Source of the DNA: Spirochaetia bacterium
GTDB lineage: Bacteria; Spirochaetota; Spirochaetia; UBA9216
NCBI GenBank assembly: GCA_963675665.1
Contig: OY776510.1
Location: 2,496,001 to 2,560,000 of the forward strand
Direction: 5' to 3'
Length of the DNA: 64,000 bases
The notes below the pieces were generated by a model. It searched no databases and was not told the DNA's origin. It saw nothing but the letters and a program-made list of their open reading frames with translations. A program made the position numbers and the translations under genes. This document shows, in pieces, positions 14,094 to 44,096 of the stretch; the first letter of the stretch is position 1; each line of letters opens with the position of its first letter.

Positions 14094-15188
14094 TCAGATT
14101 TCTCCTTTGGGAAGTCTCATTTTGTCGGCACTGAGGATCCGCTCAAGCATTTCGTCCGATATTGTATGGTTGAAAAAGGTCGTATAAAAGCTTCTGGTAA
14201 TCTGTTCAATGTTTACGTCCCTGAAGCGATCCGGATAAAGCAGTTTTGCAGTCCAGACAAGCGCAAGGGGCGTTTCCATTCCACCGGGGTGCCCCCAGCG
14301 TGATATACCGATGGGTATCTGGTATACCCTGTTGTTCTGAACCGCCTTCAGGCCGGCCCATTTCTCATTTGTAAGGATGTATTCATCAACATCCTCCTGG
14401 TTTGCAATAATTACATCGGCATCCCAGAGATAAATCTGCTCAAGGGACGCAAAATACTTGTTGTCATGAAACCTGAGGGGTTCTCCGACTGAAACATTGA
14501 TAGCACCTGTTAACTCTGTCCACTCGGCAGGGAGGGTCCCCGGTGCGTCGGTCCGGACTGCCTCATTGACTGAATGGTAGACCCGGATTCTGTCTTCCGT
14601 GGGGATATCAATTACCCGGGATTCAACAAAATCAATCTGGCGCTGATAATAATTATTATAAGCCTGTGCTTTTTCCTTTTTCCCGATGACGGTTCCTATC
14701 AATTCGATCGCCTTCATCTGTTCTTCGATTGTATTGTATTCTATTACGACATAAGGCAGGTTGAACCTTTCAATTTTTTCTATTTCAGCAGGCATTTGCG
14801 CAGTGTCGCCTTTCAGAAAAATGATGTCCGGGTTCGTTTTAAGCAGTTCCTCAATATTAATAACACCGTCGTCGGACGGGGTTGCGGCTTCTTTTATAAA
14901 CGGGTTGATTTCATTGAGAAGCCTGTCGCGTTTGGAGCCGTAGACAACTGAAACAATGTCTTCGCCTCGGTCCAGCATGGTTACTACATGAACGGTAAAG
15001 GCATAGATGCATGCTATACGTTCAATCCGTCCGGGAATTTCAACCTCACGGCCGAAGCAATCTGTAACTGTCACGGAGGCAGAGGTTTCGCTCTCTGTCT
15101 CCATTTCGACCGAGCCTGAAGAAAACAGAAAGGGAACAGCAAAAACAAGCAACGCTGAAGCAAGTATCAAGACGACCGGGTTTTTCAT
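14094..15188 (-). CDS. ABC transporter substrate-binding protein (Peripla_BP_2; BtuF/MolA-like)
   Basis: VTDCFGREVEIP, NIEELLKTNPDIIF, SLEQIYLWDADVII, LKAVQNNRVY and AKLLYPDRF. Confidence 0.85.
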   Translation of the reverse strand: MKNPVVLILASALLVFAVPFLFSSGSVEMETESETSASVTVTDCFGREVEIPGRIERIACIYAFTVHVVTMLDRGEDIVSVVYGSKRDRLLNEINPFIKEAATPSDDGVINIEELLKTNPDIIFLKGDTAQMPAEIEKIERFNLPYVVIEYNTIEEQMKAIELIGTVIGKKEKAQAYNNYYQRQIDFVESRVIDIPTEDRIRVYHSVNEAVRTDAPGTLPAEWTELTGAINVSVGEPLRFHDNKYFASLEQIYLWDADVIIANQEDVDEYILTNEKWAGLKAVQNNRVYQIPIGISRWGHPGGMETPLALVWTAKLLYPDRFRDVNIEQITRSFYTTFFNHTISDEMLERILSADKMRLPKGEI

Positions 15189-16012
15189 TTGTCGGTTTTC
15201 TCCTGTATTGTTTTAATGGGAATAATGCTTTTCAGCGTACTGTTTCCGATAATGTGGTTTGTCATTGCTGTTTCCACGCCGAATACTTTTTTCATGTTTT
15301 CCGGGTTGAGGACCCCGGAGGGCGTGCCGGTTTTGATTAGTCTTCCGTTATCAATGAGCCCGGCAGAAACAGGAATTCCGCTGTTTTCAAGAAAGAAAGC
15401 GATATAAGGGGAATGGGTTGTAAGAACTACGGAGCGTGTTCCTTCCTTGATTATATCAACTATCATTTCCAGCAGAAGCATTTCGTTTCTGAAATCAAGA
15501 TGGCTTGAGGGCTCATCCATCACAAGCAGCGGAGCTTCCTGAACCAGGGCACGCATTATTAATACCAGCTGGCTTTCTCCGCCGGAAATGCGTGTGTAGT
15601 CCCTGTTTTTCAGATGCGTCAGATTCATCTTGTCGATCAAATCCGATACGGTTTCTTTATCCTTCCTGTCGGGTGAATCAAAAAAACCCGTATAAGCTGT
15701 TCTTCCCATAAGCACTACATCAAAAACGGTGAACGGAAAATTTTTCTTGTGGTTCTGGGGAATATATGCAAGTCTCCGGGCTATCCGGGACGGCGGAAGA
15801 CCGGAAATATCGGCGCCGTCGATAACTATTTTTCCTGACCTTGGCTTGTTGATTCCGAGAAAACAATCAAGAAGGGTTGTTTTCCCGCTTCCGTTGGGGC
15901 CCAGCAGGCAGAAAACTTCCCCGCGGCTGATTTTCAGGGACACATCATGAAGCACGTCAGCCGATTCATACCCGAACGAGACGTTTTCAGCATTGAGAAT
16001 GGTCTTACTCAT
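15185..16012 (-). CDS. ABC transporter ATP-binding protein (FepC/BtuD-like)
   Basis: Walker A GPNGSGKTT, signature ISGGE, Walker B MDEP. Start at 16012 forms an ATGA overlap with the permease stop. Confidence 0.9.
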   Translation of the reverse strand: MSKTILNAENVSFGYESADVLHDVSLKISRGEVFCLLGPNGSGKTTLLDCFLGINKPRSGKIVIDGADISGLPPSRIARRLAYIPQNHKKNFPFTVFDVVLMGRTAYTGFFDSPDRKDKETVSDLIDKMNLTHLKNRDYTRISGGESQLVLIMRALVQEAPLLVMDEPSSHLDFRNEMLLLEMIVDIIKEGTRSVVLTTHSPYIAFFLENSGIPVSAGLIDNGRLIKTGTPSGVLNPENMKKVFGVETAMTNHIIGNSTLKSIIPIKTIQEKTDK

Positions 16013-17028
16013 GTCTGCCAGCCCCTGGCTTTTGTCTTTTTTAAAAGGTATATAAAGAACGGCGCACCGATAAAGGCTGTGAGTATTCCCAGGGGCAGTT
16101 CGCTGCCGGAGATCAGCCTCGACAAATCGTCGACCACAAGCAGAAAACAGCCGCCGAGCGAAAAGCTGAACGGAACAAGGTGCCGGTTGTTGCTGCCTGC
16201 AATCATTCTTCCCATATGAGGGACAATCAGCCCGACCCAGCCGATAACTCCGCTGACGCAGACTGCGCCGGCTGTCGCCAGGGTAGCGCATACAATTACA
16301 AATATTCTCGTTATCCTGATATCAACGCCAAGGGTTTGGGCTTCTTTTTCGCCCATTGCAAGGACGTTTATTCTGTACCGTACCGCGAACAGCCCTATAC
16401 AGCCTGCCGCCATCGGAATGCCCGCAAGCAGGATGTCCTTATAACGGGCTGAAGCAAGACTTCCCATAAGCCAGAAAACAATCGCCGGAAGCTGATCGTA
16501 AGGGTCGGCTATATATTTTAAAAACGACAGCGCAGCTGAAAAAAGAGAGCCTATGACTATGCCGCCGAGCACCAGGGTTATATTGGATGCTGTTTTATAG
16601 ATACGCCCGACAAACCAGCTGAACACAACCGCCAGCCCTCCGAAAAGAAATGAAAACGGGTACACTGATGGATTGCTTCCGAAAAGGATTATCGCAAGCG
16701 CCGCACCAAACCCGGAACCGTTGCTCACTCCAAGCATGCCTGAACTTACCAGCGGATTACGGAACAATCCCTGAAAGGCTGTTCCTGAAACAGCAAGACT
16801 TCCGCCGACCATAACAGCCAGAATTGCCCGGGGCAGGCGAATATAGTTGACAATTCCTGCGGTTCTGGCATCGATGCGGGTCCCGGTAAACGGGTTCAGC
16901 AGGGCTGAAAAAACATCCCTTACGGGAATGGGGTACCGCCCGAGACAAAGAGAAATAATAATCAGTATCAGGGGTGCGGCCGGAATCAGAAAATACAGAA
17001 GCCCGGGCCGCTTTTCCGCGAGTCTCAC
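16009..17028 (-). CDS. FecCD/BtuC-family ABC permease
   Basis: IRLPRAILA, FQGLFRNPLV, GVIGWVGLIVPH and LTAFIGAPFF. Confidence 0.9.
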   Translation of the reverse strand: MRLAEKRPGLLYFLIPAAPLILIIISLCLGRYPIPVRDVFSALLNPFTGTRIDARTAGIVNYIRLPRAILAVMVGGSLAVSGTAFQGLFRNPLVSSGMLGVSNGSGFGAALAIILFGSNPSVYPFSFLFGGLAVVFSWFVGRIYKTASNITLVLGGIVIGSLFSAALSFLKYIADPYDQLPAIVFWLMGSLASARYKDILLAGIPMAAGCIGLFAVRYRINVLAMGEKEAQTLGVDIRITRIFVIVCATLATAGAVCVSGVIGWVGLIVPHMGRMIAGSNNRHLVPFSFSLGGCFLLVVDDLSRLISGSELPLGILTAFIGAPFFIYLLKKTKARGWQT

Positions 17029-17031
17029 TGA

Positions 17032-17451
17032 TTATTCAGCTGTAGAAAAAGATACAGTTTGTTCGGAGCCGAGCAGGCTTCCGTTTTTTGCTGTCAGATC
17101 GGGAGAAATTACTATAATATACCCGGTTCCCGCGGTTAGCGGCCGAACCGGGGTCAACGTTATGGTTCGTTTATTCTCCGGCTCGATCTGATCATCCGGA
17201 AGGTATACGTCAATTTCAATCTCCAGGCCTTCGGGATTAAGCATCCTGAAACAGCCGGAGTTGTTTTCGGCTACCGCCATGTTCACAACATTGTTGCTGA
17301 ATTCAAGCACTACCGCTGTATCTACAGGTATGCCGGCAGCGCCGTCCTGAGGATTTGAAGATTTGAAAGAAAGTGCCTTGTCGCCGGCAAATACATTGCC
17401 CGTGGCTGTAAACAGAATCAGGGCAAGCAACAATGAAATTTTTCTCAGCAT
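17032..17451 (-). CDS. Secreted Ig-like (Big_5/SbsA-type) domain protein
   Basis: Signal peptide; SSNPQDGAAGIPVD, LEFSNNV and DLTAKNGSLLG...FST. Confidence 0.7.
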   Translation of the reverse strand: MLRKISLLLALILFTATGNVFAGDKALSFKSSNPQDGAAGIPVDTAVVLEFSNNVVNMAVAENNSGCFRMLNPEGLEIEIDVYLPDDQIEPENKRTITLTPVRPLTAGTGYIIVISPDLTAKNGSLLGSEQTVSFSTAE

Positions 17452-17494
17452 ATAATACTCCGGATTTTAATTATTTCGCAGGATGCGGAAATAA

Positions 17495-17607
17495 ATCTCC
17501 TTTCCTGACGGGAGGCTTTCGGGTTTCCCTTAAGCCCTTGCCGCGGCGACACCGCGGACCGACTGCAAATCATGGAATTAAATCGTTAGATTATGCAGTT
17601 CGGAGAT
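17495..17607 (-). ncRNA. Moco RNA motif (molybdenum cofactor riboswitch candidate), copy 1
   Basis: Minus strand reads AUCUCCGAAC-UGCA..UCUAAC..CAUGA..UGCAGUCG-CCGCGGUGUCGCCGCGG-AAGGGCUU-GGGAAACCC-AAGCCUCCCGU-CAGGAAAGGAGAU. P1 is AUCUCC/GGAGAU, there is a GAAA tetraloop with a receptor-like element, and the conserved CCUCCCG..GGAAAGGAG tail. Promoter TTGAAT-N17-TAAGCT sits just upstream. Confidence 0.8.
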
Positions 17608-17637
17608 GATCAAGCTTATCATAGAAATCACCGGCAT

Positions 17638-19188
17638 TCAATTGATATACAAATCTTCCCCGTCAAAATAAATGCTGTAATTTTTGTTTTTACCGGACGG
17701 GTACCGTCTGAGAAATGTTTCCGGATCAGTATTTGACAGTTCGTCAAGTATTTCCGGTTTTCGGCAAAGAACAACCTGAAAGGGTTTCCCGGGATTTTGA
17801 AAGGCCTCTTCCGCAGTTCTGCTCCATCTGATCAGGCTGTCCACAACAGGAAAAAGATGATCGAGCCCTGCCCGGTGGAATTCTCTGCGGAAGAAAACGA
17901 CAGCATCTATATTCGTATTCCCGGTATATTTTTCAAATAACTCTGATGGCGTTAAAGAAAGTGCGGCTGCAGCTGTTCCAAACCATGGGAAAGCCTGCTC
18001 CCGGTTATACAGCATGTCGACGGCGGCTGTGAGTTTTTCTGCCTTTCTCATATCGCTTCGGCTGAAGCTGTTACATTCGATTAACTGGTAGGATGGAAAA
18101 CCCTCATGATGTAATCCCAGGGTTTTTGACTTTTCCGTCAGTTCTGTGCCCGGCAGAACGGATAACGGAAAAATATCAATATTGTTCGGAGAGGTGCTTA
18201 CGGCGAAATCGAGAGATTTCATGAATGATTCATAATTGTCAAACGGCAGGCCGTATATAAGATCCAGGCCGAAGGTCAGGCCGTAACCGGACATCAGTTT
18301 GCATTTTTCGAGAAATTTATTACTGTTGAGGTTTCTGTTTATTTCGGTGAGGGCAGCATTGTTTGTTGTCTGAAGTCCTATCTGGAGCGAAACATCAAGC
18401 TCTGCAAAAAGTCCGCACAGTTTTTCGGTCATCAGCTCGGCCCTGATTTCAAATGTATAATGTGCATCGGGATAATTTTTTGCGATCAATTCAAGTACAG
18501 TTTCTGCATGTTTCCGGTTGTGATTGAATGTAGGATCAAGCACCCAGATTTTTTCTATACCGTTATTTTTGAATAACTGAAGTTCCCGCTCAATCCTTTC
18601 GTTTGTAATAGTCCTTATGGTTTTATTTCCTCTCGATTCATAGCAGAATGCACAATTATACGGGCAGCCCCTTGTGATTTCCCAAAGTACGCCGTCATAT
18701 TGACGGGAGGGTGAAATAACAGCCGGGTAGGGTGATTCACTCTCTGTAAAACCGGCGGGAGGAAAGTGTAGAACGGCGGATTTCTGCCTGGGCGGATTTA
18801 AAAGGGTTTCAGCAATAAGCTTTTCCGCTTCACCGATAACGATGAAATCAAATAAACCGGTTTCGGCAAAGCGGGAGGAATCAGCGCTGGGATGGGGTCC
18901 TCCGGTAAACAGCAGCAATCTTTTATTGCTTTTTCTCAAGCCGGCGGCAATTTTTATTATTTCGGCAGAATTCCAGGTGCAGGCGGAAAAGCCGAATGCG
19001 GAGGCGCCTGTTTTCAGCAGCTCTTCTGCTGCCTTTCCAGTGTTAATCGGAAGATAATATTCTTTCATTATTACATCAAACTCAGCGGTTCCCTGATTGT
19101 GTTTCAACGCGGTTTTAATAACGGCAGCTGCCAGCGGAAACGCCGGCGGAGTTTTTTCGACATGGATGGAAATCAGAACTATAGTCAT
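17638..19188 (-). CDS. B12-binding domain radical SAM protein
   Basis: FGFSACTWN, TGGPH and GEAE (B12-binding domain); EITRGCPYNCAFC (CxxxCxxC); DLIYGLP. Confidence 0.85.
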   Translation of the reverse strand: MTIVLISIHVEKTPPAFPLAAAVIKTALKHNQGTAEFDVIMKEYYLPINTGKAAEELLKTGASAFGFSACTWNSAEIIKIAAGLRKSNKRLLLFTGGPHPSADSSRFAETGLFDFIVIGEAEKLIAETLLNPPRQKSAVLHFPPAGFTESESPYPAVISPSRQYDGVLWEITRGCPYNCAFCYESRGNKTIRTITNERIERELQLFKNNGIEKIWVLDPTFNHNRKHAETVLELIAKNYPDAHYTFEIRAELMTEKLCGLFAELDVSLQIGLQTTNNAALTEINRNLNSNKFLEKCKLMSGYGLTFGLDLIYGLPFDNYESFMKSLDFAVSTSPNNIDIFPLSVLPGTELTEKSKTLGLHHEGFPSYQLIECNSFSRSDMRKAEKLTAAVDMLYNREQAFPWFGTAAAALSLTPSELFEKYTGNTNIDAVVFFRREFHRAGLDHLFPVVDSLIRWSRTAEEAFQNPGKPFQVVLCRKPEILDELSNTDPETFLRRYPSGKNKNYSIYFDGEDLYIN

Positions 19189-29926: not shown

Positions 29927-30042
29927 GAGGAATGATAAAAACACCTCCGTGTGTTTTTATCATTTTAAAGTTTGATAAGCGTCGCTCATCAAACTTCCGC
30001 TCTTTCAGCCCGCATCCTTGCGGGAATTTTTTATAGGAGGAA
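29924..30042. repeat. ~100 bp multi-hairpin intergenic element flanked by 9 bp direct repeats
   Basis: TAGGAGGAA at 29924-29932 and 30034-30042. Perfect 14 bp inverted repeat AATGATAAAAACAC/GTGTTTTTATCATT, plus two smaller hairpins. Confidence 0.5.
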
Positions 30043-35810: not shown

Positions 35811-36548
35811 ATGGAAAAAGCAAAAGTTTTTTACAATGAATTAATAAACCGGTTTGAGAAAATAATTAATGAAAATGATCTTCTTGATGAGACAATTATG
35901 ATAACCGGAAAAGTCCTGACGCCGGAAGAGGCTTTGGGTAAACCCGATCGCAGGGACTTTCCCTTACTGTCCGGAAAGGAACGTCTTATGGAAGCGGATT
36001 TCAGAGGCAGCAAAGGACAGGCTTATACGGATATGCCGGGAAACTTTACCGGGGATCTTAAAAGTATTATTGAGTTTTATCCGGAAAATAATTTTCAGCG
36101 TGCTGTACTTGTTTCCAGTATAAATGCGGTATGCAGGTATCTTGGAATTGCCGATAAAACAATTCACTGCAGGGACAATGAGCCGGAATCATGCGCTGAT
36201 GAAATAACCGGGTTTATTAAAAAGGAATTCGGAGAAGTAAAAATAGCGCTTGTGGGTTGTCAGCCCAGCATGCTTGAAAAATTGTCGTCAGTATTTCAGG
36301 TGCGTAACCTTGATCTGGATGATGATAAAATAGGCACTGAAAAGTTCGGTGTAGAGATTGAACATGGAATAGAAAAACTTGATGAAGTTCTCGGCTGGTG
36401 CGACATTATTCTTGCCACCGGAAGTACAATTGTAAACAGTACGATTGTTAGGTATCTGGATCTGAAGCCCGTATTTTTTTACGGCACTACAATCAGCGGA
36501 GCAGCAGCCCTCATGGGTTACAAACGCCTTTGCTTTTGTGCGAGTTAA
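35811..36548 (+). CDS. DUF364-like Rossmann-fold protein (putative heavy-metal chelation family)
   Basis: LTPEEALGKP.R.DFPLL.GKE, GQAYTD, KTIHCRDNEPESCA, LATGSTIVN and FYGTT. Confidence 0.7.
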   Translation: MEKAKVFYNELINRFEKIINENDLLDETIMITGKVLTPEEALGKPDRRDFPLLSGKERLMEADFRGSKGQAYTDMPGNFTGDLKSIIEFYPENNFQRAVLVSSINAVCRYLGIADKTIHCRDNEPESCADEITGFIKKEFGEVKIALVGCQPSMLEKLSSVFQVRNLDLDDDKIGTEKFGVEIEHGIEKLDEVLGWCDIILATGSTIVNSTIVRYLDLKPVFFYGTTISGAAALMGYKRLCFCAS

Positions 36549-36578: not shown

Positions 36579-36608
36579 TTGACATCTGCGAATATGATGT
36601 GATAAATT
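36579..36608 (+). promoter_or_regulatory. Sigma70-type promoter for the Moco-motif operon 2
   Basis: TTGACA-N18-(TGn)TAAATT, about 12 nt upstream of the RNA motif. Confidence 0.6.
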
Positions 36609-36620
36609 ACAACCAATAGA

Positions 36621-36740
36621 TTCTCCGAACCGTTTTTCCTAAGGAATCTGTCTATGGAAATCCGGTCGCTGTTTCGGTCATAGCCCGAACAAAGGGAATT
36701 ACAGGAAACTGTAGTTCCTCCCGTATTTTGGAAAGGAGAA
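36621..36740 (+). ncRNA. Moco RNA motif (molybdenum cofactor riboswitch candidate), copy 2
   Basis: UUCUCCGAACCG..CCUAAG..UAUGG..CGGUCG-GUUUCGG..CCGAAC-AAAGGGAAUUACAG-GAAA-CUGUAGUUCCUCCCGUAUUUUGGAAAGGAGAA. It has the canonical CCUAAG/UAUGG tetraloop receptor, a GAAA tetraloop and P1 UUCUCC/GGAGAA. Confidence 0.88.
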
Positions 36741-36859
36741 AGCACTCTACTGCTGTTTTTTTAAAACTGCGGTGTCCCTCCATACTTACGGTACTCATTC
36801 GGCTAATGCTGCTGAAACAGCACGGTCTCTCTGTTGAAATCTGAAAAAGAGGAGTAAGT

Positions 36860-38860
36860 GTGAAAAAGAGAAATTTTATCCTGTTTTTAATTATCTGTTC
36901 AGTACTGTTTTTTTCAAACGGAATTTATGCATCAGGAACACGAGAGAGTGCTGAAAATGCAGCTCAGACGGAAACCAGGATGGTTACTGATATGAGGGGG
37001 CGAAGTGTCGAAGTTCCCGTGACAATTAGCCGGGCCGCGAGCGTATTTCCCTATGTAACGTTTTTGACCCTGGCATTAGGCGGCGGTGATGTCCTTGTCG
37101 GTATTGATTCTGCGTCAGCGGGTAATGAGAACCTTATTCGGACGTACCCGGAAATGAAGGACATCCCTGCTATGGGAATGTTCTTCAATGTTAATCCGGA
37201 AAGTATTCTTGAAGCTGATCCTCAGGTGGTTTTTACCGTAAACTGGGACAAGGATCCCGATAAGACACAGGATCTTCTGAATGTTCCTGTGATATGCATC
37301 GATTTAAACCTTTACAGGGAAAGCATTGAATTCCTTTCCGGTATTTTGGGAAGCGGGGCTGAATCAAGAGGAAACGAGCTTGTATCCTGGTATGAAGATA
37401 AAAAAGATTTTATAGCCGAAAGTATAAATAAAGCAGACGTGAAGGAACCTGCAAAGGTTTATATTGTAGGCGGTAAAGGAATCCACTCCACCTTCGGAAA
37501 GGAATCCACCTGGCAATATGAAATAGAAGATGCAGGCGGAGTAAATGTTGCGGCTGATGTTGCCGGCGGCGGTGCGCAGGAAGTATCAGCCGAGCAGATT
37601 ATAATCTGGAAGCCGGATGTAATTATCCTTGATTCCGCGTGTCCTGATTCAGCGGAAGATCTTCTGAATAATGATACATTCCGGGACGTCCCTGCTGTAA
37701 AGACCAAAAGAATATACCGGGCCCCCGTCGGATTTCTTGATACTTTCGGGCGTCCGCATATGGAATCGGCATTAGCCCGTTTATGGCTTGCTGACAAGCT
37801 TTATCCTGATGAGATTAATATTGATATTGTTGATGAAGCAAAAAAGTTTTATTCAAAATTTTATGGCGCCAAACTGTCGGATTCTGAAATAGATGCCATT
37901 TTAAATCCTGTAAAACAGTCTGATGAGCCTTCCAATATTACAGTTACGGATTCTATTGGAAATAAAGTCCTTATTCCTGCCGGAGATAAAAAAGTGGCAT
38001 CGCTCAGATCCGGAATCACCGAAATAATATGTGCATTAGGCGCTGTGGACTCAATAATTGCCGTGGATGAAATGACCAAAGATGGTTATATGTACGGAGA
38101 GTTCATTTCGTTGGCATATCCTCAACTGATGGAGCAGACAGCACCCTATTCGGGGCGAGATGTTAATATTGAAGAACTGTTAAGCATAGAGCCGGATCTG
38201 GTTCTTCACGGCGGTTTCGGACGTATAAGACAGGCTGATTCAATCAAAAATCAGGCGCCTGAGCTTCCGGTTGTGATAGCGCACTTTGAGACCATGGATG
38301 CCTATATGGATGATATCAGAATTGTCGGTAAATGCGTCAATGCTGAAGATCGTGCCGAAGTTTTAATAACCTATCTGCAGCAGAAGCTCGATATGATAAA
38401 GGAATTAACAAAAAAAATTCCTGAAGACAGGAAGAAGAGTGTTTTTTATGGCGGTCATGATGTCTATCATGCTTACGGCGGAAATACATTTGAACATTTT
38501 CAGATTGTAAATGCCGGCGGGGTAAACCCGGCCGAATCCCTCACAGGATGGATGCCTGAAGTATCTCCGGAGCAGCTTCTTAACTGGAATCCCGATGTGA
38601 TTATATTGCTTAACGGGGCTGATGTTGAGGCCGTTATGAACGACGACAGGATAGAAAGTATATCCGCAATCAGAAACGGAAATGTATATGCTCTTCCGCA
38701 GGCCGGATGGGATTTTTCAACGCCGCGCGCGCTTTTTTGCATTGAATGGATATTCTCAAAGCTTTATCCGGAAGAATATTCATCTTTTGATATTAACAAA
38801 CAGGCCGACGACTTTTTTATGCAGGTTTTTAATGTTTCTTATGAAGGACCCGAACTTTAA
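36860..38860 (+). CDS. ABC substrate-binding protein with two tandem Peripla_BP_2 domains
   Basis: Signal peptide; two repeats (VTDMRGRSVEVP...ADKLYPDE and VTDSIGNKVLIP...FSKLYPEE); GTG start with SD gaggag. Confidence 0.85.
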   Translation: MKKRNFILFLIICSVLFFSNGIYASGTRESAENAAQTETRMVTDMRGRSVEVPVTISRAASVFPYVTFLTLALGGGDVLVGIDSASAGNENLIRTYPEMKDIPAMGMFFNVNPESILEADPQVVFTVNWDKDPDKTQDLLNVPVICIDLNLYRESIEFLSGILGSGAESRGNELVSWYEDKKDFIAESINKADVKEPAKVYIVGGKGIHSTFGKESTWQYEIEDAGGVNVAADVAGGGAQEVSAEQIIIWKPDVIILDSACPDSAEDLLNNDTFRDVPAVKTKRIYRAPVGFLDTFGRPHMESALARLWLADKLYPDEINIDIVDEAKKFYSKFYGAKLSDSEIDAILNPVKQSDEPSNITVTDSIGNKVLIPAGDKKVASLRSGITEIICALGAVDSIIAVDEMTKDGYMYGEFISLAYPQLMEQTAPYSGRDVNIEELLSIEPDLVLHGGFGRIRQADSIKNQAPELPVVIAHFETMDAYMDDIRIVGKCVNAEDRAEVLITYLQQKLDMIKELTKKIPEDRKKSVFYGGHDVYHAYGGNTFEHFQIVNAGGVNPAESLTGWMPEVSPEQLLNWNPDVIILLNGADVEAVMNDDRIESISAIRNGNVYALPQAGWDFSTPRALFCIEWIFSKLYPEEYSSFDINKQADDFFMQVFNVSYEGPEL

Positions 38861-38865
38861 AACTG

Positions 38866-39894
38866 ATGCATAATGAGCAGAAATCTGATCGGCTGTTCAG
38901 TCTTGCAGCATTCTTTTTTGGTTTGCTGTTTGTAATTCTTTTTATTGTATCTCTGTTTTCAGGCAGATATTCCATTTCGCCCGGGTTGATGTGCCGTGTG
39001 TTGCTTTCTAAGATAATACCTCTCGATATAACATGGTCACGGACTGTGGAGACTGTAGTCTTCAATATCAGGCTTCCGAGAACCGTACTTGCCTGTCTTA
39101 TAGGAGGAAGCCTCGCTGTCTGCGGGGCTTCTTTTCAGGGCATGTTCCAGAACCCGCTGGTTAGCCCTGACATTCTCGGCGTAACATCAGGCGCAGGCTT
39201 CGGCGCAGCTTTGGCAATCCTTCTGTGGAACAAGGTCGCGCTTATACAGGCCTCGGCCTTCACGTTCGGAATACTTGCCGTTGTTGTTGCTTACCTGATC
39301 AGCCGCGTCTTTAAAACAACGCCCACACTGATGCTTGTGCTTTCCGGTATTATTGTAGGCTCTATTTTTTCAGCTCTTTTATCATTGATTAAATATGTTG
39401 CAGATCCCAACCAGAAACTGCCGGCTATAGTTTTCTGGCTGATGGGAAGTCTTGCGGGTGTTTCCAGAAAAGAACTTGTAACCGTTGCGATACCAATCCT
39501 GATTGGAACAGCCGGACTGTTCCTTGTAAGGTGGCGGATAAACATACTGTCGATGGGAGACGAGGAAGCACATTCGATGGGGATCAGAACCGGCACGCTC
39601 AAGCTGTTCATCATTATCTGCGCTACATTAACAACGGCATCCTCCGTAAGCGCCTGCGGCATAATAGGCTGGGTAGGCCTGGTTGTGCCGCATATCTGCC
39701 GGATGATTATCGGTTCGGACCATAAGCGACTTATACCGCTTTCTTTTCTGGGCGGAGGCTGTTTTCTGCTCGGCGTTGATACCATTGCAAGAACCGCCAT
39801 TTCAGCTGAAATCCCGCTGGGAATCCTGACCGCACTTATCGGGGCCCCTTTCTTTGCATTCCTGCTCAGAAAAACAGGAGGCAAACCGGGATGA
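38866..39894 (+). CDS. FecCD/BtuC-family ABC permease
   Basis: NIRLPRT, FQGMFQNPLVSPDILGV, GIIGWVGLVVPH and TALIGAPFF. Confidence 0.9.
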   Translation: MHNEQKSDRLFSLAAFFFGLLFVILFIVSLFSGRYSISPGLMCRVLLSKIIPLDITWSRTVETVVFNIRLPRTVLACLIGGSLAVCGASFQGMFQNPLVSPDILGVTSGAGFGAALAILLWNKVALIQASAFTFGILAVVVAYLISRVFKTTPTLMLVLSGIIVGSIFSALLSLIKYVADPNQKLPAIVFWLMGSLAGVSRKELVTVAIPILIGTAGLFLVRWRINILSMGDEEAHSMGIRTGTLKLFIIICATLTTASSVSACGIIGWVGLVVPHICRMIIGSDHKRLIPLSFLGGGCFLLGVDTIARTAISAEIPLGILTALIGAPFFAFLLRKTGGKPG

Positions 39895-40736
39895 ATGAAA
39901 CAGCCGTTGAATTATTTGAAGCATCATTTTCTTACGGGACCGAACCTGTTTTTTCGAATATCTCCGGAAAGATTAATCGCGGAGAGATCGTGTGTCTTCT
40001 GGGCGCAAACGGCTGTGGAAAGACAACCCTGATGAAATGTATGAACGGGCTTCTGCAGTTCGAAAGCGGAAAGGCTTTTATTCTGGGGAAAGATTTATTT
40101 TCAATGAGCGAGAGAGAACTTGCGATGAAAACAGCTTTTGTTTTCCAGGGTTATTCTCAGGTTTTTTCATATTCCGTTACCGACATTGTTCTTACCGGAA
40201 GGGGGCCCCATCTCGGCTTTTTCTCTTTTCCAGGACAAAAAGACAAACAAAAAGTTTTTTCAATTATGAAGGAAATGCATATAAGCCATCTGGCTTCACG
40301 ATATTTTCCCACCCTGAGCGGAGGAGAGCAGCAGCTTACAATGATCGCCCGGGCCCTGGCGCAGGAACCTTATGTGCTTTTTCTTGATGAGCCGGCTACA
40401 GCTCTGGATTTCGGAAATCAGCAGTACCTGTTAAGGACTGTAAAGAACCTGGCCAGGGTATACGGAATAACGATAGTAATGTCGACCCATTACCCGGACC
40501 ATGCATTGGCCGTTGCAGACAGTATCTGGGCAATAAAGGACGGCCGGATTATCAGTTCGGGACCTCCGCTTGAAGTCCTCACTGAGGAAAATATTTATAA
40601 ACTTTATAATGTGCCGGCCAGAGTGATTGAAGTGAGAGAAGAAGGAATTAATTCTCATACTGTAGTCCCCCTGGATAACAAAGCCGGCGATGAAGTAAAT
40701 TTTATTCTTGCGAACAAAGGTAAAGATAATGAGTGA
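39891..40736 (+). CDS. ABC transporter ATP-binding protein
   Basis: GANGCGKTT, LSGGEQQ, LDEP and STHYPDHA. Confidence 0.9.
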   Translation: MNETAVELFEASFSYGTEPVFSNISGKINRGEIVCLLGANGCGKTTLMKCMNGLLQFESGKAFILGKDLFSMSERELAMKTAFVFQGYSQVFSYSVTDIVLTGRGPHLGFFSFPGQKDKQKVFSIMKEMHISHLASRYFPTLSGGEQQLTMIARALAQEPYVLFLDEPATALDFGNQQYLLRTVKNLARVYGITIVMSTHYPDHALAVADSIWAIKDGRIISSGPPLEVLTEENIYKLYNVPARVIEVREEGINSHTVVPLDNKAGDEVNFILANKGKDNE

Positions 40737-42960
40737 TGTAAGGTGTAATTATTGTGAGAAGAGATGTATTTTAACTGATAAGGATTTCGGATATTGCAGG
40801 ATGTACAAGATGGAAGAAGGAAAGGTCGTCGAACGATTCCCGTTTCGTTTTTCAAGCATAGGAGATTCTTATGTAGATGGCATCCCTTTCTATCACGTAT
40901 TACCCGGAAGCAGGACCCTTGTTGTCGGCAGTTCCGGATGCAATATTGATTGCGCGTATTGCTCCAATTCCTATGTCGCGAGGGCCGATGTTGAAAAGAC
41001 ATTGCGCCTTAAATGTTCTGCTGAAGAAATAATCCGTATGGCTAAAAACGCTGAATGCAAATCAATAACCTTTCCGATTAATGAACCTGTTGTTGCTTTG
41101 CCTACTGTTCTCGGGATTGCCGAAGAAGCTTCGAAGTCAGGGCTCCCGACAGGGATTCTTACAAACGGACTTATGACTGAATCTTCTGCGGAAGCCCTGG
41201 CGCGGTCCGTAGACTTTATCAATGTAAGTATAAAGGCCGTTAACAAGGACAGTATATCGGCCCTGCTCGGCTGGTATGATCTGGAAGTTCTTGCCCGTAA
41301 TATTTCGTTGTTTAACAGGAACGCGCATGTTGAGGTCAGTACCCCGATAGTGCAGGGGATAAATGATTCGGATATACCGGCAATAGCCGGCCTTATCTCA
41401 AGTATTGACCGAAGTATTCCCTGGCATGTATTTCGTCTGCTTCCGGAGTATCGTATGGCCGAAATGGAACGTCCCAACATCCGCAAGGTAGCCAATGCGA
41501 TTGAAAATGAAAAGGAAAATCTTGATTTTATCTATTTCAGCAATTTCCTCGGATCAGTATGGGTCGATACCCTTTGCCCCGAATGCGGGAAAAAGGTTAT
41601 AGAAAGGATTAACTACGGCGGCTGCAATGCCAAATGCGTTAAGATTGAACTGGATTCGGACAGGTGTCCTGTTTGCGGCAGGAAGATCCCTGTATTTAAC
41701 AACATGTCAATTTCGGAAGAATATGATTCAGCTTTCAATATGCAGAAATCTTCCCCGGTAATGTATGACGATACAGATAAAGATATTGCTGTTATTGATG
41801 TTGTCGACTGGCAGGCTGATGTGGAGATGAGGACCGGAAATATTGTCGATATTGAAGATATTGTTAACGGGAACGGCGCGGACAGGGCTAAAAGGATTAT
41901 ATCCGAAGTTAAATCTCATCTTAAAGAAAATCAGTATCCCGGAGATTTAAACGGTTCTGCCTGTGAATGGATAACTGACAACGCACTGGCTATAAATAGA
42001 ATATATAAGCCCGAATTCATGTTTCTTAATTATTGCGATATATTTTTTAATAAAGTTTTTTCTTCAGGCGACAGTTTTACCGAAAAAAAGATTCGTAACA
42101 AAGTTTTTAATGAAGTGAACCGGTTTATTGAAAACACCGACTTTGAACCGGTAATAGCAGGGTTGGGCAATCTTATTGATATTTCCGGAGAAATAAGTAC
42201 GACCGGAACAGACGCCCATATAGAAGCTTTTGGAATGTACTGTCAGTATGCGGGACTGTTTTCTCCGTCAAACGAGGCTCTGAAACGGATAGAACCCATA
42301 CCTGGTATACGGAAAATAGTATCAAGAGAGATGTTGCGGAATTCCGGCGATGTCGCTCCGGATTTTCTTAAAAGAAGTCCTGATTATATCCTGTGTGCAA
42401 AAGAAGGATACTATTTCAGGGGACACGGAACCGCCGCCAGACCTTTTTATAAACTTCCTTCACAGGATGCAAGTATTCCTGTTTCGGGGATTAAAAGCGG
42501 CAGAGTAAAGAATATTACTGATATAGCTTCGTATATTCTTGATTCACTGGGGAAAAAGAAGACAGCGCTGATTTTTATTGAGGGCATCGGCAGGGAAGAG
42601 TTTCCGTACGATTCAATTGATATCGGATCCTCGCAGGATTGGTTCTATTATCCGCATAATAATGAAATGTACCTGTCAATACTCACGGGAGAACCCTTTA
42701 CCGCCAGGCCTTATCCTCCGGCATATCAGGCATATAAATATGACGGTTATGATTCGCCTTTTCCATATTCGGCATACTATGAGTATATTGAACCGGGTTC
42801 AATAGGAAGAAGATTCAAGGGCCGCAGCGTGTCCGTTGGCGGGAGAAGCGTCCTGACGCATGTTTCAGCCGGAACGGACATTACAATAGAATGCTTTGCC
42901 CGGGCGCTTTACAATCATGGAACAATTGCCGTAATGAACACGGAAAAGCTTGGTAATTAA
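40729..42960 (+). CDS. Radical SAM enzyme (AmmeMemoRadiSam/PflA-like) fused to a ~400 aa C-terminal domain of unknown function
   Basis: N-terminal RCNYCEKRC..GYC; GCNIDCAYCSN (CxxxCxxC); NEP; Zn ribbon CPECG..CPVCG; long C-terminal extension. Start overlaps the ATPase stop. Confidence 0.8.
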   Translation: MSDVRCNYCEKRCILTDKDFGYCRMYKMEEGKVVERFPFRFSSIGDSYVDGIPFYHVLPGSRTLVVGSSGCNIDCAYCSNSYVARADVEKTLRLKCSAEEIIRMAKNAECKSITFPINEPVVALPTVLGIAEEASKSGLPTGILTNGLMTESSAEALARSVDFINVSIKAVNKDSISALLGWYDLEVLARNISLFNRNAHVEVSTPIVQGINDSDIPAIAGLISSIDRSIPWHVFRLLPEYRMAEMERPNIRKVANAIENEKENLDFIYFSNFLGSVWVDTLCPECGKKVIERINYGGCNAKCVKIELDSDRCPVCGRKIPVFNNMSISEEYDSAFNMQKSSPVMYDDTDKDIAVIDVVDWQADVEMRTGNIVDIEDIVNGNGADRAKRIISEVKSHLKENQYPGDLNGSACEWITDNALAINRIYKPEFMFLNYCDIFFNKVFSSGDSFTEKKIRNKVFNEVNRFIENTDFEPVIAGLGNLIDISGEISTTGTDAHIEAFGMYCQYAGLFSPSNEALKRIEPIPGIRKIVSREMLRNSGDVAPDFLKRSPDYILCAKEGYYFRGHGTAARPFYKLPSQDASIPVSGIKSGRVKNITDIASYILDSLGKKKTALIFIEGIGREEFPYDSIDIGSSQDWFYYPHNNEMYLSILTGEPFTARPYPPAYQAYKYDGYDSPFPYSAYYEYIEPGSIGRRFKGRSVSVGGRSVLTHVSAGTDITIECFARALYNHGTIAVMNTEKLGN

Positions 42961-42989: not shown

Positions 42990-44096
42990 TTACCAGAGCG
43001 GGGTAAGCCTGCGGGCAAAGACATTGCGGGCCGGTTTCATATCAAGATCGCTGAAAAACAGGCCCGAATCCTTATGGTATGACGCGTCCGACTCGACCAG
43101 CTTGAAGTAATAGGCTTCTGTAACAGGAAGAGCTTCTATGGCGTCTATATAATATTCCATCCGGTCGGCCTGGTAGTCCGGAGAAGTAAGCTCAAATTCC
43201 GAATTCGGGCCCCCGAATTCCGAAACCAGCACAGATTTTTCATCCGGCAGAACGGAAAGATATTCAGGCCAGTTTTCAGGATCATCATACAAATGGATGT
43301 CTATAATATCATATCCGGCGTTCTGAAAAACATACTCTACATTCTGCTTTATCCCGTTGCTGTCGTAATCTTCTTTAATCTTATCGATTCGACTGTTGAG
43401 ATATTCTACAGTAATGCCGTTATCGAGGGTGATACCGGAAAAATCAGGGTAGGCGCCCTTTGCGGCAAAGTATTCAACAATCGGATAGGTTCTGGTAAGT
43501 CCTCCAAGAACAACTTCAGTATTCGGTGATAATGTCTGAACGGCATTATAAAGTATATTATTATAGGCTACGAATCTTTCTATGGAACTCTGATCCATGT
43601 AAACCGTTCCGTCCTGTGTGCCTGATTCCCACTCGTTTCCAAACTGGATTTTATTGATATTGTTGTACCGGGATAATAATGCTTCGATAAAGGTTTGAAG
43701 CGCCTCTTCGTTCAGAAGACAGGCGCCGTCGCTTCCGGGCGTGAGGGTTGCCCAGTCCGGACCGATGCTTGATATGGTCAGAAAAACCGATATATTGTTT
43801 TCTTCGGCCGCATTCATGCGGACATCCATGGGGTCCCAGTAAAAGTTTCCCTGCTCAGGTTCCCTGTTTCTCCAGTCTACGGCTATTCGTATTCTGTCGA
43901 TTGCCAGTTTCTTTATCTCATCAACGGTAAAGTTAATCTGTTCAAGGCTGGAAAAAGGCGGGAACGACATTCCCGCTATTATACCTGTTGCTCCGTAAAC
44001 GGAATAATTGCCTTCCAGTATTAATTCCGATTCACAGCAGGAATAAAGATGTAAAGTAATTATAAGTAAAAATATTACCCGAAACAGCCTGTTCAT
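42990..44096 (-). CDS. Glycoside hydrolase lipoprotein (clan GH-A TIM barrel)
   Basis: Lipobox-like LYS-C; DWRNREPEQGNFYW; acid/base QFGNEW; DIHLY; nucleophile VSEFGGP. Confidence 0.7.
   Translation of the reverse strand: MNRLFRVIFLLIITLHLYSCCESELILEGNYSVYGATGIIAGMSFPPFSSLEQINFTVDEIKKLAIDRIRIAVDWRNREPEQGNFYWDPMDVRMNAAEENNISVFLTISSIGPDWATLTPGSDGACLLNEEALQTFIEALLSRYNNINKIQFGNEWESGTQDGTVYMDQSSIERFVAYNNILYNAVQTLSPNTEVVLGGLTRTYPIVEYFAAKGAYPDFSGITLDNGITVEYLNSRIDKIKEDYDSNGIKQNVEYVFQNAGYDIIDIHLYDDPENWPEYLSVLPDEKSVLVSEFGGPNSEFELTSPDYQADRMEYYIDAIEALPVTEAYYFKLVESDASYHKDSGLFFSDLDMKPARNVFARRLTPLW

Follow-up and report, generated by a model that had tools for sequence, protein, structure and literature searches.

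A Moco riboswitch-led operon from a Spirochaetia bacterium combines a MolBC-like importer with a radical SAM fusion protein of an unnamed family and may serve molybdenum acquisition

To our knowledge, the accepted route of molybdenum (Mo) and tungsten (W) from the environment to the cofactor consists in its entirety of uptake by the Mod, Tup, Wtp and MolBC systems followed by insertion by MoeA. Both riboswitch-controlled Mo/W transport and a type II molybdate importer are already known. Molybdate is stated to be the sole bioavailable Mo source that is known (PMC11484787). According to Regulski et al. 2008 (PMC2408646), the regulons of the molybdenum cofactor (Moco) riboswitch include the mod, tup and wtp transporters, the moa genes, and enzymes that depend on Moco or on the tungsten cofactor (Tuco); the same source proposes that RNAs containing the P3 stem sense Moco whereas those lacking it sense Tuco. 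The window analyzed here, 64,000 nucleotides from a Spirochaetia bacterium (contig OY776510.1, positions 2,496,001 to 2,560,000), contains an operon in which a P3-containing Moco riboswitch precedes genes for a two-domain substrate-binding protein, a permease and an ATPase of an ATP-binding cassette (ABC) importer, and a fusion of a radical S-adenosylmethionine (SAM) domain with a tail domain from an unnamed family. The interpretation that the data tend to favor is a Mo acquisition operon switched off by Moco, in which a MolBC-like importer would act together with a new cytoplasmic radical SAM/phosphodiesterase-fold enzyme, the whole representing a mobile Mo/W cassette in its Mo-regulated copy. 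In the open-access literature searched, there is no description of the conserved enzyme pair or its fusion, of the two-domain binding protein, or of paired Mo-type and W-type cassettes. The features of the operon, in window coordinates, are the following.

36579..36608, + strand: promoter-like site (TTGACA, an 18 nt spacer and TAAATT, with TG; 10 of 12 consensus matches), ending 3 nt 5' of the aptamer
36611..36754, + strand: Moco riboswitch aptamer (RF01055, P3-containing class; 76.5 bits, E 9.7e-17), with the P3 hairpin aligned
36755..36859, + strand: putative expression platform and leader, with a CCCUCC able to pair with the GAGG ribosome-binding region 5' of a GTG start
36860..38860, + strand: exported two-domain substrate-binding protein, 666 aa, with two Peripla_BP_2 stretches and a GTG start
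38866..39894, + strand: FecCD-type, MolB-like permease, 342 aa (FecCD 302 bits; best solved relative HI1471)
39891..40736, + strand: MolC-like ABC ATPase, 281 aa (ABC_tran; best solved relative HI1470)
40729..41724, + strand: radical SAM domain of the fusion protein, PflA/AmmeMemoRadiSam-like, with 12 invariant cysteines
41725..42960, + strand: 411-aa tail domain of the fusion protein, member of an unnamed family, the model of which partly resembles the alkaline-phosphatase/phosphodiesterase fold

The match to RF01055 detected with cmscan is not truncated (model positions 1-135 of 135), and its score lies well above the gathering score of 36. The original prediction had placed a Moco RNA motif ahead of the operon, and this full-length covariance match bears it out; the start given there, 36621, falls within the element, the match itself beginning at 36611. 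By the P3 rule of Regulski et al. 2008 (PMC2408646), the riboswitch is, as judged from its sequence, of the molybdenum type. The minimum-free-energy fold of the region pairs the leader CCCUCC with the GAGG region, with a z-score of -1.44 that is not significant; such a pairing would sequester the ribosome-binding site, a putative mechanism for ligand-dependent repression. Promoter-like sites are not enriched in the region (14 observed versus 13.2 in shuffled sequences), so that position is the sole argument for the site at 36579..36608. The four open reading frames (ORFs) 3' of the riboswitch are tightly coupled: the first two are 5 nt apart, the second and third overlap by 4 nt, and the ATPase and fusion genes overlap by 8 nt, counted from the ATG at 40729, the start used by the database copy. 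From that start the fusion protein has 743 aa; from the TTG at 40708 (ORF 40708-42960) it has 750 aa. Given that a convergent gene ends at 42990, the end of the operon was set at 42960. The Pfam assignments (E-values of 5.9e-54 for the two Peripla_BP_2 stretches, 5.6e-90 for FecCD and 3.7e-29 for ABC_tran) and the ORFs together confirm the earlier description of four coupled genes, whose products are the binding protein, the permease of FecCD type, the ATPase and the radical SAM fusion.

Comparison with solved structures identifies the proteins of the Haemophilus influenzae molybdate/tungstate importer as the closest solved relatives of the transport machinery. For the permease, HI1471 (MolB) is the best match with 248.6 bits, ahead of HmuU (173) and BtuC (134), and for the ATPase, HI1470 (MolC) scores 139.5 bits, with the next match at 122.3 bits. 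Among the NCBIfam models, those for BtuC and FhuB rank best with the permease, all of them below the cut-offs. The binding protein contains a signal peptide followed by two Peripla_BP_2 domains (N-domain, residues ~37-349; C-domain, residues ~359-666), both of which match MolA (HI1472; PDB entries 3psa and 3psh), the N-domain with an E-value of 6e-24 and the C-domain, searched alone, with one of 2e-20.

The radical SAM domain matches Radical_SAM (PF04055) with 52.9 bits (cut-off 29.5) over residues 75-229 of the 750 aa protein. The CX3CX2C motif, C71/C75/C78, is invariant in all 13 aligned radical SAM domains, and so are nine further cysteines, four N-terminal and five C-terminal to the motif; the extra cysteine clusters noted originally are therefore real features of the family and leave room for what might be two further metal sites. 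The best named match is the AmmeMemoRadiSam model TIGR04337, which the window domain reaches with 136.4 bits and a stand-alone orthologue with 163.6 bits, both below the cut-off of 220. The glycyl-radical activase model TIGR02494 scores 50.5 bits (cut-off 174.35), and the sole solved sequence relative is the pyruvate formate-lyase (PFL) activase. An identity with MoaA was considered and rejected, in agreement with the original view that the protein differs from MoaA: TIGR02666 gives 31.5 bits, far under its cut-off of 284, and a true moaA (370 bits) is located elsewhere in the genome.

The tail domain represents an unnamed family for which neither Pfam nor NCBIfam has a model. A word-based homologue search found just the window protein and one relative, and an exhaustive HMMER search of 1.84 billion proteins was used instead; it retrieved 112 representative clusters at E<=1e-3, 87 at 1e-10 and 47 at 1e-30. 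Most members stand alone and are about 380 aa in length; a Radical_SAM domain is present at the N-terminus of seven long ones, one of them (P0002) by precomputed Pfam annotation and the other six, all those tested, by direct search. Scanning 32 aligned members against Pfam and NCBIfam produced no meaningful match to any model, and residues 340-750 of the fusion protein have no Pfam match. No alkaline-phosphatase-superfamily chain was found when the family profile was compared with PDB sequences at E<=10, the only matches being chance-level ones to PurE (E 0.17 or worse). A search of the literature with open access likewise found no description of the family or of the radical SAM/tail pair. On all these counts, the suggestion that the system is undescribed has held.

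An AlphaFold model of the tail built from the 32-row alignment has a predicted local distance difference test (pLDDT) score of 92.3 and a predicted template modeling (pTM) score of 0.92; it replaced a model from a two-sequence alignment (pLDDT 34), which was discarded. The best Foldseek matches of the model are phosphonoacetate hydrolase and the ENPP enzymes, at E 1e-3 and a template modeling (TM) score of about 0.3. With VIA-align, the top 8 of 48,161 chains all belong to the alkaline-phosphatase superfamily (Z 9.4-7.1 over ~200-225 residues), and the matches cover only the C-terminal half of the known enzymes. In a search with protein-language-model features, 29 of 30 matches are PF01663 clusters, ranking next after the family's own cluster. 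The likeness to alkaline phosphatases and nucleotide pyrophosphatases that had been read from the sequence is thus supported, as a partial similarity, at the level of the fold, and fails at the level of sequence profiles, where none of the 32 members matches PF01663 at E<=0.1; the three peptide strings on which it was based do occur in the translation and lie on conserved blocks of the family. The conserved residues, in tail numbering, are D74, W82, D220, E286, Y309, R374, H379, D385, E389 and C390. Among these, D74, D220, E286, H379 and D385 are placed by the model mostly at or beside strand ends, which suggests a metal site in the tail; T84 is not conserved. A search of the same genome for a PF01663 protein yielded only a partial match of 33.5 bits.

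The association of the two halves of the fusion protein was examined in 27 loci, of which the genome itself contributed 2, further Spirochaetota 2, species genomes 11 and metagenomes 12. A radical SAM gene is fused to the tail gene or located immediately upstream of it in 19 of these, one of which (L028) was included by ORF layout alone. Several loci are near-duplicates (e.g., L027/L028, L034/L035, L029/L038 and L041/L042/L044), so that the number of independent lineages is nearer ten. The same genome encodes a full-length paralog of the fusion protein, 31% identical across 750 aa; its gene directly follows another Moco RNA and precedes Peripla_BP_2 and FecCD genes. In a metagenome-assembled Alkaliphilus genome (MAG), a stand-alone radical SAM protein, 43% identical to the window domain and with all the cysteine motifs, adjoins a stand-alone tail homolog. 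Predicted as a complex, the radical SAM and tail domains score 0.85, a value reached by 116 of 157 solved complexes and by 2 of 215 mismatched pairs, the best control in this case scoring 0.00; contact agreement between runs is at least 95% and partner pLDDT at least 86. In the modeled interface, a loop (232-240) and a strand-turn (391-401) of the tail lie opposite residues 60-86 of the radical SAM domain, on the flanks of C71/C75/C78. Gene linkage and modeling together indicate that the two halves probably work together. Some Bacillota operons contain two tail paralogs and one radical SAM gene (L029:3294-4553 and L029:6829-8013; also L033 and L038), the paralogs of the L029 type being separated by a binding protein and a permease.

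The same loci connect the pair with Mo and W. RF01055 is present upstream on the same strand in 15 of the 27 loci (8 of 11 in species genomes, 5 of 12 in metagenomes and 2 of 2 in the same genome), several metagenome contigs being too short for an upstream region to be visible. The riboswitch-linked cassettes come from Spirochaetota, Chloroflexota and Bacillota, and three metagenome loci, identical in their riboswitch scores, have only the tail gene directly behind the RNA, amid unrelated neighbors. No B12 riboswitch was detected in the 25 related loci scanned; apart from the Moco RNAs, Rfam elements there are limited to SAM riboswitches and a T-box, each of them located downstream of the tail gene. 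Such a survey of homologous neighborhoods had been named beforehand as a test; the recurrence of Moco RNAs in three phyla, with no operon behind a B12 riboswitch, supports the tie to Mo/W that was originally proposed, and none of the refuting outcomes set out beforehand was encountered. FecCD importers are encoded beside the pair in 12 of the 27 loci. Elsewhere, the neighbors include a ModABC-like set (in a Dethiobacter MAG) or, in two near-identical Bacillota loci, a divergently transcribed MOT1-family gene and, downstream of the pair, genes for MatE and a ModA-like protein. Because the pair also accompanies ModABC- and MOT1-type transporters, its substrate need not be a cargo specific to FecCD importers. 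P3 is absent from all seven riboswitch alignments examined for cassettes from other organisms; on the P3 rule of Regulski et al. 2008 (PMC2408646), the family would be mainly tungsten-linked, and the window would hold a molybdenum-regulated copy. In an Alkaliphilus MAG locus (L025), two almost identical P3-less Moco RNAs (L025:2959-3085 and L025:6509-6635) lie 3.5 kb apart, the first leading a FecCD importer and the second the radical SAM gene, the tail gene and a second FecCD importer.

Operons of Anaerolineae are collinear with that in the window, the RNA being followed in both by genes for the binding protein, the permease, the ATPase, the radical SAM protein and the tail. The C-domains of the binding proteins are 62-63% identical (63% for an Anaerolineaceae protein), the permeases 64%, the ATPases 46%, the radical SAM domains 48% and the tails 38.5%. 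Such high identity between phyla suggests that the cassette has spread by horizontal transfer. In the Anaerolineae binding proteins (L024:68-1060 and L034:3377-5161), the MolA-like N-domain is replaced by an N-terminal Oxidored_molyb-like stretch (sulfite-oxidase fold); the matches are partial, at 30.9 and 28.1 bits (cut-off 24), and no single stretch passed alone.

The genome itself (5.15 Mb) contains 11 RF01055 matches. The genes behind them encode TupABC-like and ModABC-like transporters, ferredoxin with aldehyde:ferredoxin oxidoreductase (AOR), an aldehyde dehydrogenase, purine enzymes, an Oxidored_molyb-like protein (as part of an operon) and five FecCD importers. The P3 stem is present in three of these RNAs, the ModABC leader and the two in the window, and absent from the other eight, including those of Tup, AOR, the paralogous fusion cassette and three FecCD importers. 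Moco biosynthesis is complete (moaA, moaC, moaE, two moeA genes and one MogA/MoaB-type gene), and there are 16 AOR-family genes and one gene of the dimethyl sulfoxide (DMSO)-reductase family. The W/Mo regulon of this genome is unusually large. In such a heavy consumer of Mo/W, with pterin synthesis of its own, the metal is a more probable limiting input than the cofactor.

Several other loci in this genome and window merit mention in their own right. A P3-less Moco RNA (L010:95-216) precedes genes for an adenylosuccinate-lyase-like protein, IMP dehydrogenase and adenylosuccinate synthetase (genes to 4528); this arrangement may tie the supply of purine, the GTP precursor, to cofactor status. 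Another P3-less RNA (L014:10040-10172, - strand) precedes an NAD-type aldehyde dehydrogenase (L014:8640-10037, - strand) that may stand in for the tungsten AORs, independently of the cofactor, under cofactor scarcity. At L015:5138-10222 (- strand), a P3-less RNA leads genes for an SBP_bac_8 protein, for a protein of 476 aa in which one stretch is Oxidored_molyb-like (38 bits), and for a double permease of 668 aa, together a further, unassigned transporter under riboswitch control. The radical SAM gene of a third riboswitch/FecCD operon (L012, 307 aa) was considered as a relative of the fusion gene and rejected; it is unrelated and BioB/HmdB-like, below cut-offs. Within the window, a second P3-containing Moco riboswitch (17481-17617, - strand; 58.3 bits) leads a FecCD permease (16009-17028), an ATPase (15185-16291) and a single-domain Peripla_BP_2 protein (14094-15188). 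This operon (14094-17617, - strand) has no radical SAM gene, and a B12-binding radical SAM gene (17638-19188) is located just upstream of its RNA. The Treponema TD-2 small RNA family is matched at window positions 29927-30025 (- strand) and at L011:10016-10114 (+ strand), with 50.1 and 63.6 bits; the latter match lies antisense to the Moco RNA of the AOR operon and overlaps with the 3' end of this RNA. Upstream of the main operon, a gene for a DUF364 protein (annotated as ‘putative heavy-metal chelation’; 35811-36548, + strand) ends 63 nt 5' of the riboswitch and hence lies outside its control. A related cassette (L023) opens with genes for a DUF4213/DUF364 protein, here a better match, and for an FmdE protein. 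In the window, the methyltransferase gene and the DUF364 gene upstream of the operon were tried as cassette members; their kinship to the L023 counterparts is barely detectable (E 5e-4 and 1e-4), and neither was therefore counted as part of the operon.

Taken as a Mo acquisition operon, the system would work as follows. When Moco is scarce, the P3-containing aptamer would be unliganded and the four genes would be expressed. The lipoprotein-like binding protein with its two MolA-related domains would pass a ligand, presumably molybdate or a closely related Mo species, to the MolBC-like type II ABC importer. The cytoplasmic two-domain enzyme, in which the PflA/AmmeMemoRadiSam-like module with its two extra cysteine clusters would dock on the phosphodiesterase-like domain bearing the putative metal site, would then perform a further step that raises the usable supply of Mo/W or of the cofactor. 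The cassette would be mobile, with versions under P3-less riboswitches, apparently of the Tuco type, in other organisms and in the paralog of the same genome.

Four observations weigh against this interpretation. First, according to a preprint (bioRxiv 10.64898/2026.10.15.759412), the ligand pocket of MolA is formed by K221, R264, Y301 and Y114, and in HMMER alignments these positions correspond to S, A, R and W in the N-domain and to T, G, F and F in the C-domain, none of the four being identical in either; the mapping is made at ~25% identity and assumes that chain index and residue number differ by 21, an offset with which all four residue types agree. Plain binding of molybdate in the manner of MolA is accordingly not supported. 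The transport machinery is MolBC-like but the binding pockets, judging from these alignments, are unlike those of MolA, and the system is not filed as an ortholog of MolBC-A. Second, ModABC and TupABC are already present behind riboswitches in the genome, so that the need for one more importer of plain oxyanions is not obvious. Third, the tail gene has no adjacent radical SAM gene in 8 of the 27 loci. Fourth, two other Spirochaetota loci carry the cassette with no Rfam match of any kind in 20 kb.

A bolder variant, offered tentatively and with distinctly less confidence than the acquisition operon, is that the cassette represents an unrecognized W/Mo route of anaerobes. The MolBC-type importer would take up a form of the metal other than the oxyanion, such as a pterin complex derived from the cofactor, a chelate or a thio-species, and the radical SAM/phosphodiesterase-fold enzyme would free the metal or recycle the cofactor without oxygen, in separate W- and Mo-sensing versions of the cassette.

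Salvage of cofactor or pterin is the strongest of the competing explanations, although still an unlikely one. In this scheme, the importer takes up Moco or Tuco, a dinucleotide form, molybdopterin or a breakdown product that other cells have released, and the enzyme recycles it or strips off the metal anaerobically. An analogous anaerobic treatment of haem is known for ChuW, which is encoded in haem-importer operons. The loss of the oxyanion ligands of MolA from both binding domains fits this scheme, as do the resemblance of the tail fold to nucleotide pyrophosphatases and phosphodiesterases and the Oxidored_molyb-like stretch at the N-terminus of the orthologous binding proteins of Anaerolineae. 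The sulfite-oxidase-like fold of PruR binds pterins (PMC11194511). On the other side, those Oxidored_molyb matches are partial, as noted above; the permease is nearest to MolB, an importer of small oxyanions, rather than to BtuC or haem permeases; the genome has the complete de novo Moco pathway; the enzyme pair also occurs beside ModABC-type and MOT1 transporters; and the existence of separately regulated Mo-type and W-type copies speaks against a metal-free pterin as the cargo. Import of a pterin or of a Mo complex for salvage is thus possible, at low probability. The original prediction proposed an undescribed system that imports just such a cargo and remodels or salvages it; its other elements, namely the riboswitch, the operon, the partial fold likeness, the Mo/W tie and the novelty, have stood, and the specific cargo with its processing is the part that faces counter-evidence.

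Less probable again is synthesis or tailoring of a small Mo/W chelator by the enzyme, with export of the chelator and recovery of the metal-loaded complex by the type II importer. The two near-identical Bacillota loci are suggestive in this respect, being ordered Moco RNA, radical SAM, tail, MatE efflux pump and ModA-like binding protein, and FecCD importers typically carry chelates. For DUF364, participation in the chelation of heavy metals has been proposed and a link to tungstate/molybdate transport genes noted (PMC2954201), and such a gene occurs both just upstream in the window and, with FmdE, inside the related cassette. Against a metallophore, there is no exporter in the window operon or in most of the loci, a set of two genes is small for a chelator pathway, the DUF364 proteins and methyltransferases of the window and of L023 are barely related, and the permease is closest to MolB.

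Equally improbable is that the radical SAM domain is a maturase that modifies the phosphatase-fold domain post-translationally to yield an active enzyme or a Mo/W-binding protein. Anaerobic sulfatase-maturating enzymes act in this way on sulfatases, and activases on glycyl radical enzymes. The PflA-like character of the radical SAM domain is compatible with such a role, and the modeled interface brings tail residues 391-401, which include the near-invariant N397 and G399 beside E389/C390, against the residues that flank the cluster motif; the pairing of one radical SAM gene with two tail paralogs in some operons also fits. Stable fusion in at least seven representative clusters and in two genes of the same genome is, however, unusual for a catalytic maturase and its client; the tail alignment contains neither the sulfatase CxPxR motif nor a glycyl-radical motif; C390 is replaced by serine in 2 of 32 members; and the glycyl-radical activase model falls far short of its cut-off (50.5 bits versus 174). 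An ordinary importer of iron siderophores, haem or corrinoids with an incidental Moco match is hardly credible: the Peripla_BP_2 and FecCD families mostly serve such ligands and the best NCBIfam models for the permease, below cut-offs, are those of BtuC and FhuB, but the riboswitch E-value of 1e-16, the homologous cassettes behind the same RNA family in three phyla, the ranking of MolB, MolC and MolA as the best solved relatives, and the lack of B12 riboswitches in the 25 related loci scanned all speak against it.

Under the preferred interpretation as a Mo acquisition operon, the cassette would add to the Mo/W route, in heavy users of tungsten enzymes, a conserved riboswitch-regulated enzyme pair from an unnamed family, and it is probably the mark of a step in the Mo/W acquisition of anaerobes that has not been described. 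The pair offers a defined target for a missing step of W or Mo handling under anoxic conditions, and the Mo-type and W-type cassettes of one genome form a natural pair for the study of metal selectivity of riboswitches and proteins. The findings also provide an annotation handle for a family now labeled ‘radical SAM protein’ or ‘hypothetical protein’.

Comparison with the known systems delineates what the cassette shares with each of them. The PF01663 branch of the alkaline-phosphatase superfamily, which comprises nucleotide pyrophosphatases/phosphodiesterases and phosphonoacetate hydrolase (PDB entries 1ei6, 3t02 and 5ege), resembles the modeled tail over part of the fold, and its clusters are the nearest in language-model features. 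Unlike these enzymes, the tail has no sequence-profile match and no evident conserved threonine or serine nucleophile at the expected place, and it belongs to a protein that appears to be cytoplasmic and coupled to a radical SAM domain. The TIGR04337 model matches the window domain from end to end, N- and C-terminal cysteine motifs included; in contrast to the AmmeMemoRadiSam system, neither an AMMECR1 nor a Memo partner is found here, the partner being the phosphodiesterase-fold protein. As in Regulski et al. 2008 (PMC2408646), the presence or absence of P3 tracks Mo versus W genes in this genome, ModABC being preceded by a P3-containing RNA, and Tup and AOR by P3-less ones. The window operon departs from the regulons described there in that it contains a FecCD-type importer and an unnamed enzyme family; radical SAM enzymes are not mentioned in the passages of that paper used for this comparison. 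For the importer, the closest system is MolBC-A (HI1470/HI1471/HI1472) of Haemophilus influenzae, with which the window system shares the type II (FecCD) architecture and the link to Mo/W, MolA, MolB and MolC being among its closest solved relatives. It differs from MolBC-A in that neither binding domain retains the four ligand residues of MolA, and in having a tandem two-domain binding protein, riboswitch control and an extra gene for a radical SAM/phosphodiesterase-fold enzyme.

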